A program made the translations under genes and the position numbers. Shown here in pieces: positions 6,292-21,442 of a stretch of DNA of 32,000 nt. This stretch comes from Anaerolineales bacterium (GTDB lineage: Bacteria > Chloroflexota > Anaerolineae > Anaerolineales > Villigracilaceae). The notes beneath the pieces are model-generated. The model did not search any database. It was not told the DNA's origin and saw only the letters and a program-made list of their open reading frames with translations. The stretch spans positions 222,982 through 254,981 of the forward strand of contig JABARH010000003.1 of assembly GCA_019187665.1 (NCBI GenBank), read 5' to 3'. Numbering within the stretch: the first letter of the stretch is position 1; each line of letters opens with the position of its first letter.

Positions 6292-6544
6292 GATCAGCCG
6301 CTTTTTCGGGATCAGCATCAAAATGTTCTTTGGCGATCATGTTCCGCCGCATTTTCACGCCGAGTATGGGGAATACAAAGCGCAAATAAATATTCGCTCA
6401 CACAATATCATTGCGGGAGATTTGCCGCCCCGCGTTCTTGGAATGATTGTCGAATGGGCATCGCTGCATCAGGATGAATTATTTGAATTATGGGAACTTG
6501 CATCGAAGAACCAGCCTCTGCACCGTATTGAACCGCTCAAATAA
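6284..6544 (+). CDS. DUF4160-domain protein
   Basis: MPEISRFFGISIKMFFGDHVPPHFHAEYGEYKA is the hallmark DUF4160 N-terminus (FYGI-x-I-x-MY-x2-DH-x-PPHFH). Confidence 0.8.
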   Translation: MPEISRFFGISIKMFFGDHVPPHFHAEYGEYKAQINIRSHNIIAGDLPPRVLGMIVEWASLHQDELFELWELASKNQPLHRIEPLK

Positions 6545-6550
6545 ATAGCC

Positions 6551-8251
6551 TCACACCAATGTCCCCGCATACCCATCCGCGCGCGGATCGCTTCCGCCGC
6601 ACAGCACGCCTGTTTTTGCGTCGCGGAGAATGACCTGCCCCCTGCCGAACAATGCGCGTTCGTAACCAGTGACCGAATACACGGGGTGTCCCATTTTTTG
6701 CAAGCCGTTGAATGTCCCCTCTGGCATTCCCTCTTCGATCGCAACGCGCCCGCCTGATTCATCCACGTCAATGCAAAAGCGCGAACGATCCAGCGCGGAC
6801 TGGGGATCTAGCCCATCATCCACCAACGCGGATAACACTTGCACGTGTCCCTGCGGTTGCATGAATCCGCCCATGACGCCGTAGGAGGCGTATAAAGATT
6901 CTTCAAAAGAATCTTTTGAACCGCGAAGCTCGCTAAGACCGCTAAGAATTTCTTGATTCTTCGCGTGCTTTGCGCTCTTCGCGGTAAGTTTTGTGACCAT
7001 GGCAGGGATAATCGTGTGATAGGGTCGCTTGCGCGGGGCGAGGGCGTTGGGATGATTCGGGTCGAGGCTGAAGTTGTGTCCGCGATTTTGAAGCGTGAAG
7101 CCCCAGCCTTTTGGGACAATGCCTGTGCCGAATCCCATGTAGTTGCTGTTGATGAACGAGCAGGCGTTGCCGAATTTGTCCACGACGCTGAGATAGACGG
7201 TGTCGGAGGAGGAGACGGGAACGCCGCGTTCGATATTGCGTATTGCGGACTGCGTGTTGATTAGTTTGCGGCGATGACTTGCATATTCTTTCGATAACAG
7301 TTCATTGATGGGGATGTTTGAAAACTTTGGGTCAGATACATACCAACTCGCATCGGCAAAAGCGAGGCGCATCGCTTCGATCATCAGGTGCATCTTTTCA
7401 ATGGAGAGAGATTCAAGTGAAGCCAGATCGAATCCTTCGAGAATATTCAACGCGATCAACGCGGTGATGCCCTGTCCATTGGGCGGACATTCGTAGACTC
7501 GATAGCCGCGATAATCCACTGAGATTGGCTCTTCCCACGTGGACGTGTGCGACGCGAGATCGTCAGCGGACAGACACCCGCCCGCCTCGTTCAACACAGC
7601 GACGATGGCTTCGGCAATTTCACCTTGATAAAACGCCGACGCCCCTTCGCGCGCGATGGTTTCAAATGTTTTTGCCAAGCCAGAATTGCGGAAGATCTCG
7701 CCCGCGTTCGGTCCGCGTCCATCAATGGTTAACTCTTGTCCGTTCGGCGCGGAGGCGAGTTGACGTTGAACGCCGCGTCCCCAAAAATAGGATGTGATCG
7801 GCGCGACGGGAAAGCCGTCGCTGGCGAGTCGAATCGCGGGCGCGAGAATCTCAGACATCGAGAGCGAGCCGTGTTTTTGAATCAGGTCGAACCAGCCCGC
7901 GCACGCGCCGGGGACAGTCACCGTGTATGGATGGAACGCGGGAATCGAAGATGCGAATCCGCTGGTCTTTAGCCGATCAAGCGTAAGGGCGGAAGGAGCG
8001 CGGCCCGATCCGTTGAGGGCGGTGACTCGTTTCGTATCCGCAGAAAAATACAGCGCGAACATGTCGCCGCCGATCCCAGTGGAGGTTGGCTCGGTCACGT
8101 TGAGCGCCGCGCCCGCCGCAACAGCCGCATCTGCCGCGTTGCCTCCTTTCGCAAGGATTTCAAGCCCCGCAGCTGTAGCGAGAGGTTGCGAGGTTGCGAC
8201 GATTCCGTTCGTTGAGTACACAGGCGAGCGATGGGATGAAAAATTCATCAT
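6551..8251 (-). CDS. ggt: Gamma-glutamyltransferase family protein (no signal peptide, YwrD-like) carrying a 22-codon repeat insertion
   Basis: I start it at the ATG at 8251 (MMNFSSHRSPVYSTNGIVATSQPLA), because the listed longer ORF would overlap the divergent MFS gene. GGT motifs are present: TSTGIGGDMFALY, the autoprocessing Thr in SSDTVYLSVVD, and GVMGGFMQPQGH. Confidence 0.9.
   Translation of the reverse strand: MMNFSSHRSPVYSTNGIVATSQPLATAAGLEILAKGGNAADAAVAAGAALNVTEPTSTGIGGDMFALYFSADTKRVTALNGSGRAPSALTLDRLKTSGFASSIPAFHPYTVTVPGACAGWFDLIQKHGSLSMSEILAPAIRLASDGFPVAPITSYFWGRGVQRQLASAPNGQELTIDGRGPNAGEIFRNSGLAKTFETIAREGASAFYQGEIAEAIVAVLNEAGGCLSADDLASHTSTWEEPISVDYRGYRVYECPPNGQGITALIALNILEGFDLASLESLSIEKMHLMIEAMRLAFADASWYVSDPKFSNIPINELLSKEYASHRRKLINTQSAIRNIERGVPVSSSDTVYLSVVDKFGNACSFINSNYMGFGTGIVPKGWGFTLQNRGHNFSLDPNHPNALAPRKRPYHTIIPAMVTKLTAKSAKHAKNQEILSGLSELRGSKDSFEESLYASYGVMGGFMQPQGHVQVLSALVDDGLDPQSALDRSRFCIDVDESGGRVAIEEGMPEGTFNGLQKMGHPVYSVTGYERALFGRGQVILRDAKTGVLCGGSDPRADGYAGTLV
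6920..6985. repeat. 66-nt hairpin element (3 x 9-mer, loop, 3 x inverted 9-mer) inserted in frame inside ggt
   Basis: The left arm is ACCGCGAAG CTCGCTAAG ACCGCTAAG (6920-6946) and the right arm is CTTCGCGTG CTTTGCGCT CTTCGCGGT (6959-6985). It spans exactly codons 423-444 of ggt (TAKSAKHAKNQEILSGLSELRG). It has the same architecture as the core of the element at 21349-21415. Confidence 0.85.
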
Positions 8252-21313: not shown

Positions 21314-21442
21314 TCGGTAATTTCTCTACCGTACATGAGAAGATTTTTACCGCAAAGCACGCTAAGGTCGCCAAGTTAAAAAGGTTTTCTTTGCGTTCTT
21401 TGCGGGCGTAGCGGTGCAAATGTACGGTAGAGAGTCGGTAAT
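21314..21442. mobile_element. MITE-like nested hairpin element with terminal inverted repeats and flanking 8-nt direct repeats
   Basis: The perfect 14-bp inverted repeat is TCTCTACCGTACAT (21323-21336) and ATGTACGGTAGAGA (21420-21433). The direct repeat TCGGTAAT sits at 21314-21321 and 21435-21442, one nt outside each inverted repeat. The core (21349-21415) is a 3 x 9-mer / inverted 3 x 9-mer hairpin related to the ggt insertion. Confidence 0.7.

Follow-up and report, generated by a model that had tools for sequence, protein, structure and literature searches.

The Rickettsia palindromic elements (RPE; Ogata et al. 2000, 2002) are repeats that occur as in-frame fusions in mutually unrelated enzyme genes (PMC10969869, PMC3184786). 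They are the closest analogue of the element analyzed here, being dispersed palindromic repeats found both between genes and in frame within unrelated conserved enzyme genes. The present element lies in a 32,000-nucleotide stretch of an Anaerolineales genome (the window), where a 66-nt hairpin made of 9-nt units, referred to below as the 9-mer hairpin, is located inside ggt, a gene encoding a YwrD-type gamma-glutamyltransferase (GGT). We consider it quite probable that this segment of ggt is a copy of a palindromic repeat dispersed in Anaerolineales, with an A/T-rich loop between arms of three NNCGCNAAG units each, that occupies a permissive β-turn of the enzyme.

A preliminary description of this DNA had reported three 9-mers, a 12-nt loop, and three inverted 9-mers at positions 6920-6985, an arrangement that the sequence and independent repeat finding both confirmed. 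On the plus strand, the first arm reads ACCGCGAAG CTCGCTAAG ACCGCTAAG, the loop AATTTCTTGATT, and the second arm CTTCGCGTG CTTTGCGCT CTTCGCGGT, and the inverted repeat recovered by the repeat finder has arms of 30 nt with 80% complementarity. Two adjacent units are found 10 times in the window, versus 0.58 expected from shuffles, and none of 100 shuffles reached this count. When folded as mRNA, the hairpin has a predicted energy of −34.9 kcal/mol (z = −6.1). Translation of the open reading frame (ORF) at 6551-8248 bore out the claim that the hairpin takes up exactly 22 in-frame codons of ggt, read as TAKSAKHAKNQEILSGLSELRG, and the predicted tryptic peptides of the resulting loop include SAKHAK and NQEILSGLSELR. 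The proposal that a 9-nt unit keeps the frame at any copy number also held, as orthologs with two, three, or four units in the 5′ arm were found, and sequence, unit count, and an inverted-repeat search upheld the identical architecture described at 21349-21415. The preliminary description overlooked the full extent of the insert, the recurrent occupation and turnover of its site, two further in-frame copies, and conservation at the nucleotide level.

Judged from its sequence, the host gene is intact. The ORF remains open upstream as far as 8386 on the minus strand, and its product matches Pfam G_glu_transpept (PF01019; E = 3.5e-148) over both subunits, with the match split in two at the insert; the best solved homolog is 2NLZ (E = 3.3e-145). 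In an alignment of 50 sequences, Thr350, Gly460-Gly461, and ∼170 further positions are invariant, so that the profile match, the catalytic Thr, and the Gly-Gly pair, the oxyanion-hole pair of GGT enzymes (Gly483-Gly484 in E. coli GGT), place the protein in the GGT/YwrD family (PF01019, MEROPS T03). With these residues and the ORF preserved, the gene shows none of the disruption that would have spoken against an insertion into a working enzyme. Within the GTDB family of the window, ggt is patchy: 25 of 41 genomes have a match at E ≤ 1e-100, and one same-genus genome, 97% complete, has none at that threshold. This distribution suggests that ggt is an accessory gene under weak constraint. Among close relatives the ggt loci are syntenic, and a divergent MFS gene adjoins ggt.

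Comparison with homologs indicates that the segment is a true insertion. In the alignment with 2NLZ, residues 3-420 of the query correspond to 12-428 and residues 455-561 to 435-536, leaving 34 residues in the query versus 6 in the solved protein. A turn of 3-5 residues between HTIIPAMVT[RK] and LYASxGVMGG is found in 55 of 80 orthologs from species-level genomes (genome assemblies, nearly all of them metagenome-assembled genomes (MAGs) of Anaerolineales or Chloroflexota), in 48 of 75 metagenome loci, and at 16 of the 23 readable sites within the same GTDB family, where a same-genus genome has KSDGS; overall, about two-thirds of ∼180 orthologs have such a turn. The segment is thus extra relative to GGT/YwrD homologs, as had been proposed, and distant orthologs mostly have this short turn, not a homologous segment of the same length lacking repeats. 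The proposed placement in a surface loop also stands. In an AlphaFold2 model (mean pLDDT 88.8, pTM 0.91), the insert falls between strands 416-423 and 448-458 with pLDDT <50 at residues 427-444, and it is therefore predicted to be a disordered protrusion from the tip of a β-hairpin whose second strand leads into the oxyanion-hole glycines. The proposed extent does not stand, since the foreign segment comprises not just 22 but 31 codons: a Leu codon, the 22 hairpin codons, and a tail encoding SKDSFEES, which together take the place of a 5-residue turn. The tail does not belong to the dispersed repeat and was probably left behind by an element that previously occupied the site. Only the window and a relative at 94% identity have the second palindrome inside the tail; SNNEFEES or SNIDIDES is found at this place in other orthologs.

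The 9-mer hairpin belongs to a family dispersed over the genome. Arrays of at least three units (≤2 mismatches) were found at 88 loci of the 3.5-Mb genome, compared with 2 in a shuffled genome, and both arms are present at 44 of the 88. Sixty of these loci lie in or beside a MITE (a miniature transposable element with inverted repeats), designated family A, which measures ∼112-137 bp, has 14-bp terminal inverted repeats (TIRs; TCTCTACCGTACAT) and 8-bp target duplications, is present in 54 copies, and carries the 9-mer hairpin as its core; the element near 21.3 kb in the window is one of these copies. About one-third of the MITE copies hold a nested 25-nt element, CACTTCGGCTTCGCTCAGTACAGGC, at a fixed position of the 3′ arm. 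The remaining 28 loci are stand-alone hairpins whose arms have three units each and whose loops are A/T-rich, with ends such as TTGAACCGC...GCGGTTCAA. They vary among themselves at the N and NN positions of the unit, and the ggt hairpin is of this kind. Across the order, the motif is present in 37 of 201 genomes and 19 of 80 genera, most often with 1-20 arms, and a reversed control pattern gave ∼0. The window's genome has 129 arms, and one same-genus genome has none.

Genes contain just 3 of the 28 stand-alone copies, each of them in frame and, by comparison with solved structures, in a loop or linker. Besides the ggt copy, these are a hairpin in a gene for a TlyA methyltransferase and a copy in a CoxS-type fusion, where the 5′ arm (TAKHAKNAK) is intact and the 3′ arm degenerate. 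The reading frame of the 5′ arm in TlyA (YRQAREEREE) differs from that in ggt, which fits with the sequence of the 9-nt unit, where four or more of the six frames are free of stop codons. Two-unit matches in a gene for an ABC-type binding protein (C27:22861) and in a CoaE-like gene (C28:28907) were dismissed as chance. Bacterial coding density is typically near 90%, a value that we assumed here. Given that so few copies are in genes against this density, we infer that selection eliminates the majority of gene insertions and that a strong filter, or a preference for intergenic sites, acts on the family.

The inserts show a pattern of constraint that is the inverse of that expected for a peptide under selection. 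All ten orthologous 9-mer inserts agree at their stem codons, namely ACC (Thr), AAG (Lys), three CTT (Leu, six-fold degenerate), GGT (Gly), and TCA (Ser), so that synonymous sites are frozen at seven of seven stem codons, compared with 3 of 74 columns in the flanks (Fisher p = 3.5e-8), where 50 codons on each side were used and columns with an invariant degenerate residue were counted. Third positions in the flanks of these ten orthologs are 53% identical. The seven three-unit forms were aligned over 72 columns, of which 22 vary, namely those at the N and NN positions, those of the loop, and two with single changes. NN falls on codon positions 1 and 2, such that residues vary (S/Y/D/N/G, H/N/S/D) while third positions are fixed. 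Columns that pair are invariant, opposing N columns frequently mismatch, and no covariation signal was detected in the stem columns of this alignment. A comparable freeze is seen in a second class of occupants of the turn, the PSP class introduced below, in which CCC TCT CCC ... AGA GGG ... GGT GAG is nearly invariant versus 3 of 73 columns in the flanks, and in which two double changes (CCC/GGG to CCT/AGG) occur. These comparisons indicate a constraint on the DNA motif and not on the peptide. The freeze does not result from the recent spread of a single cassette, since the variable positions, the loop, and the tail have diverged; purifying selection on a DNA or RNA motif and concerted evolution with other copies remain as explanations.

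The turn that hosts the hairpin is occupied in many other lineages as well. At least 6 extra residues were found at the GGT turn in 23 of 81 aligned orthologs, compared with at most 3 such cases at any other internal site. Across lineages, at least 10 unrelated hairpin families are found there. These include the PSP class, CCCCTCTCCC...GGGAGAGGGG, read as LPSPxGRG (Pro/Ser/Gly), another hairpin with CTCCCCCCAAATT...AATTTGGGGGGAG, and several hairpins with arms of heptamer units. A 56-nt blastn query of the PSP class gave no match in E. coli genomes, an outcome that the low-complexity filter may explain. A 66-residue insert (L111:1501-3291, metagenome contig FWPV01000065.1) is encoded by a 198-nt hairpin of −100.7 kcal/mol with arms of tandem 15-nt units, one arm being translated as repeated GRLVD and the other as repeated STNSQ. 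The fold z-scores of the inserts range from −2 to −11, and some inserts have ceased to fold and may be decayed. Our metagenome scan for close relatives returned only orthologs of ≤79% identity, which contributed to this hotspot count and not to the DNA analysis of the close clade. The distribution of inserts indicates that the GGT turn is a hotspot that has been colonized repeatedly.

Among close relatives, the occupant of the turn changes quickly. The 120 orthologs at 77-94% identity fall into four classes at the site: 9-mer (29), PSP (56), AERS (19), which is the translated reverse complement of a CTTCGGCTTCGCTCAG-type mini-element, and empty turn (15). On an ortholog tree built with the insert masked, the classes are intermingled, with 38 changes over 121 tips, and the nearest relatives of the window, 96% identical, have the PSP class. 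A tree uniting the 9-mer carriers, a group that was named after the first tree had been seen, was rejected (delta lnL 466, p-AU = 3e-8), and trees from four quarters of the protein required 41-43 class changes each, with no fewer near the insert and thus no sign of local linkage at the protein level. The ten readable 9-mer inserts are nevertheless homologous at the DNA level, with a common loop (AAT-CAA-AAA-AAT) and a common tail (GGT TCA AAT AAT GAA TTT GAA GAA TCT), which points to a single origin; some PSP alleles have a similar tail, ...NEEE[ST]. Composite alleles also exist, with two PSP units in tandem or a PSP unit together with a GTCCGAAGGAC mini-hairpin. In one ggt ortholog, 89% identical (L083:3001-4725), a 24-nt element, CACTTCGATAAAACTCAGTGCAAGC, read as TSIKLSAS, is nested between units 1 and 2 of the 3′ arm, the same relative position as that of the nested element in the MITE copies, and this shared position suggests hairpin-targeted insertion of the mini-element. 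From these alignments and trees, the occupants of the GGT turn change more quickly than the gene diverges. One loop of TlyA orthologs shows the same classes, namely 9-mer, PSP, LPPNS..LGG, FDQAQ/AERS, FPLSSFVEKGKKKDER, and near-empty alleles, and the turnover is therefore not special to GGT.

Some further observations were made on the window's genome. Stand-alone hairpins lie 15-70 nt upstream of start codons at C3:134679, C1:325012, C6:140123, and C19:26714, and the genes below them are formate-dehydrogenase-like, an ornithine carbamoyltransferase, MoxR-like, and one other. The genome also holds ∼13 PSP hairpins and ∼20 copies of the mini-element. Homologs of the Y1 transposase (PF01797) are found at C9:7721, C8:71464, C8:21503, C1:345198, C12:3477, C25:16531, and C3:156170, some of them of the REP-associated type by length.

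Table 1. Coordinates of the hairpin, its host gene, and related copies. Plain numbers are positions in the window; positions prefixed with C are elsewhere in the same genome.
Feature	Position	Strand	Basis or comparison
66-nt hairpin core, three 9-nt units per arm	6920..6985	.	sequence, repeat finder, fold
Arm of three NNCGCNAAG units; mRNA 3′ arm; encodes LSG LSE LRG	6920..6946	+	
12-nt A/T-rich loop, encodes NQEI	6947..6958	.	
Inverted arm, CTTNGCGNN ×3; mRNA 5′ arm; encodes TAK SAK HAK	6959..6985	+	
Whole variable segment, 31 codons (LTAKSAKHAKNQEILSGLSELRGSKDSFEES), in place of ancestral 3-5 residue β-turn	6896..6988	-	
8-codon tail SKDSFEES, common to all 9-mer-class orthologs	6896..6919	-	
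Second palindrome, perfect 10 bp, AAAGATTCTT TTG AAGAATCTTT, inside tail	6894..6916	.	repeat finder
YwrD-type gamma-glutamyltransferase gene (ggt)	6551..8248	-	ORF + Pfam PF01019; 565 aa counted from MNFSS start
Catalytic nucleophile Thr350 codon, intact	7199..7201	-	50-sequence alignment, codon checked
Gly460-Gly461 codons, oxyanion-hole pair, end of strand after insert	6866..6871	-	50-sequence alignment, codons checked
Family-A MITE copy, TIR TCTCTACCGTACAT, 8-bp target duplication TCGGTAAT; 9-mer hairpin core 21349-21415	21322..21434	.	
9-mer hairpin in TlyA methyltransferase gene	C31:14431-14491		∼29 extra residues vs 3HP7, between its residues 172 and 177
9-mer copy in CoxS-type fusion (aldehyde-oxidase-like), linker between two [2Fe-2S] domains	C3:31415-31439		19-residue gap vs 1T3Q

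We favor a model in which a copy of the repeat came to sit in the tight turn of the YwrD-type GGT β-hairpin and would be translated into a flexible surface loop of ∼26 extra residues, leaving the enzyme intact. With arms that are nearly free of stop codons and a 9-nt unit that keeps the frame, copies would survive where a protein tolerates a loop, and in the window's genome the GGT turn, the TlyA loop, and the CoxS-type linker would be such tolerant places; the tip of a long two-stranded hairpin would be the least harmful place for a peptide whose ends must meet. The GGT turn has been refilled repeatedly by whichever hairpin families each lineage carries, with occupants that swap fast. The peptide is not under selection, and the stem motif (ACC, CGC, AAG / CTT, GCG, GGT) is kept, most likely by concerted evolution or by a sequence-specific recognition common to the other genomic copies. 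We infer in this way that the loop is translated and tolerated, how copies move, and why the stem is retained. Several points weigh against this model. The 9-mer inserts appear to have one origin and yet sit on carriers scattered over the gene tree, a pattern that requires either that lineages recombined or that an earlier occupant was replaced site-specifically more than once. A hotspot generated by targeting instead of tolerance could fit the data equally well, and frozen stems would be expected of a functional element no less than of a passenger that gene conversion keeps uniform. At the ggt junctions, comparison of the window with orthologs gave no convincing target-site duplication, and the copy has no TIRs other than the palindrome itself; CAAAA, which flanks both sides in the window, was rejected as a target duplication, as it is not common to the orthologs. 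Lastly, no mobilizing enzyme came to light, the nearest 9-mer array being 5-69 kb away from each of the seven Y1 transposase homologs.

Alternatively, the hairpin might be a functional module, either a CGCNAAG array bound by a protein or an mRNA structure, that purifying selection keeps even in coding regions, with permissive protein loops as the places where it can be kept. This would account for a stem motif frozen synonymously while N and NN positions and residues vary, for the intergenic copies in one genome being conserved and variable at the same positions, for the several copies just upstream of start codons, and for the persistence of the family at low copy number in 19 of 80 genera. 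On the other hand, no covariation was seen in the stem columns, with invariant pairs and frequent mismatches at N; sister lineages have unrelated hairpins in its place, or none; a same-genus genome does without any copy; no binding protein is known; and no Rfam 15 covariance model matched at E ≤ 1 on either strand of positions 6400-7500. On balance, we regard a functional module as rather unlikely, and we are similarly hesitant about a broader possibility, in which the NNCGCNAAG family and the other hairpin families would all be nucleic-acid modules, and a few enzyme β-turns reusable landing pads, exchanged by recombination or by hairpin-targeted insertion. The variable number of units in the 5′ arm of orthologs (two, three, or four) might reflect an origin in place, through 9-nt slippage or duplication and palindrome formation. 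This is very improbable, given that the same 3+3 architecture with termini ACCGC...GCGGT recurs at ∼28 stand-alone loci, in 54 MITE cores, and in 36 other genomes, and that empty-site orthologs have no proto-repeat. Equally hard to credit is an adaptive role of the extra loop, for instance as a lid or interaction loop in which the repeat-like DNA would be incidental. The loop does precede the strand that ends in the oxyanion-hole glycines, and the insert is kept in at least 29 cluster representatives, but residues change at codon positions 1 and 2 with the third frozen, the reverse of protein-level selection, the model has pLDDT <50 there, the 96%-identical orthologs have an unrelated Pro/Ser/Gly-rich loop and others none, and the TlyA copy uses another reading frame of the same arm. 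Finally, the window comes from a MAG, which could raise the suspicion of an assembly artefact or a pseudogene; the chance of either is negligible, as independent assemblies (NCBI, ENA, JGI, Logan) have the same insert, the ORF is unbroken, and no invariant residue of the family has been lost. A dispersed repeat copy in a permissive turn thus remains our preferred reading of the segment.

Such a system could be used to ask whether repeats of this sort are passengers or functional DNA or RNA modules, and how new protein loops originate. Palindromic repeats read through in genes are known mainly from Rickettsia, and the present case extends them to free-living Chloroflexota. To this it adds a single β-turn that, across the order, has independently received at least 10 hairpin families, swaps that outpace the divergence of the gene, and an inverted codon-position constraint, which implies selection or homogenization on a DNA motif within a coding region. 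It also calls for caution in annotation and in phylogenies based on these genes. A literature search found no description of such elements in Chloroflexota, although its limited coverage makes this weak as evidence.

The 9-mer hairpin resembles several known classes of small repeats. In Nostocaceae, small dispersed repeats (SDR) and STRR heptamers have reportedly been described by Elhai et al. (2008) as very small elements that insert into repeats and sometimes into genes. The 9-mer element shares with them the tandem short units and a 24- to 25-nt mini-element nested at a fixed position of the hairpin, in the MITE and in one ggt ortholog, and would differ from SDR, with their units of 21-27 nt, in sequence, in the 9-nt unit, and in phylum, a hairpin of tandem units not being known as an SDR design. 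Repetitive extragenic palindromes (REP) and REPINs, which are associated with RAYT, are likewise short, imperfect palindromes, mostly extragenic, present in tens of copies, and kept in sequence (PMC3733652, PMC2817692, PMC3116915). Unlike these, which have a GTAG or CGTC tetranucleotide at one end of a palindrome of 20-40 nt, the 9-mer element has no GTAG/CGTC head, and has a length of 66 nt, periodic units, and ACCGC...GCGGT termini; membership was rejected, as no RAYT-like gene is flanked by 9-mer hairpins, the nearest being 5 kb away. The relation to MITEs is closer, in that the hairpin forms the core of a genuine one, the element at 21322-21434 having both the TIRs and the target duplication expected of this class. 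Stand-alone hairpins differ from it in that they lack the family-A TIRs and show no target duplication, and the ggt copy was rejected as a MITE, as it has neither MITE TIRs nor a target duplication and replaces the ancestral turn codons.

The RPE remain the nearest point of comparison, with the GGT β-turn, the TlyA loop, and the CoxS-type linker as the counterparts here of their fold-compatible in-frame sites. Judged from the descriptions, the 9-mer element is not a member of an RPE family, from which size, phylum, architecture, and peptide set it apart. Its host is a member of the Chloroflexota, its core of 66 nt contrasts with the ∼105-150 bp of RPE, and its arms consist of tandem 9-nt units. 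Genes hold just 3 of its 28 stand-alone copies, compared with nearly half for some RPE families. The conserved peptide of the RPE is absent here, where residues vary and one and the same arm is translated in different frames. Finally, unlike the RPE, the elements described here include many unrelated hairpin families that share, and swap in, one and the same loop.

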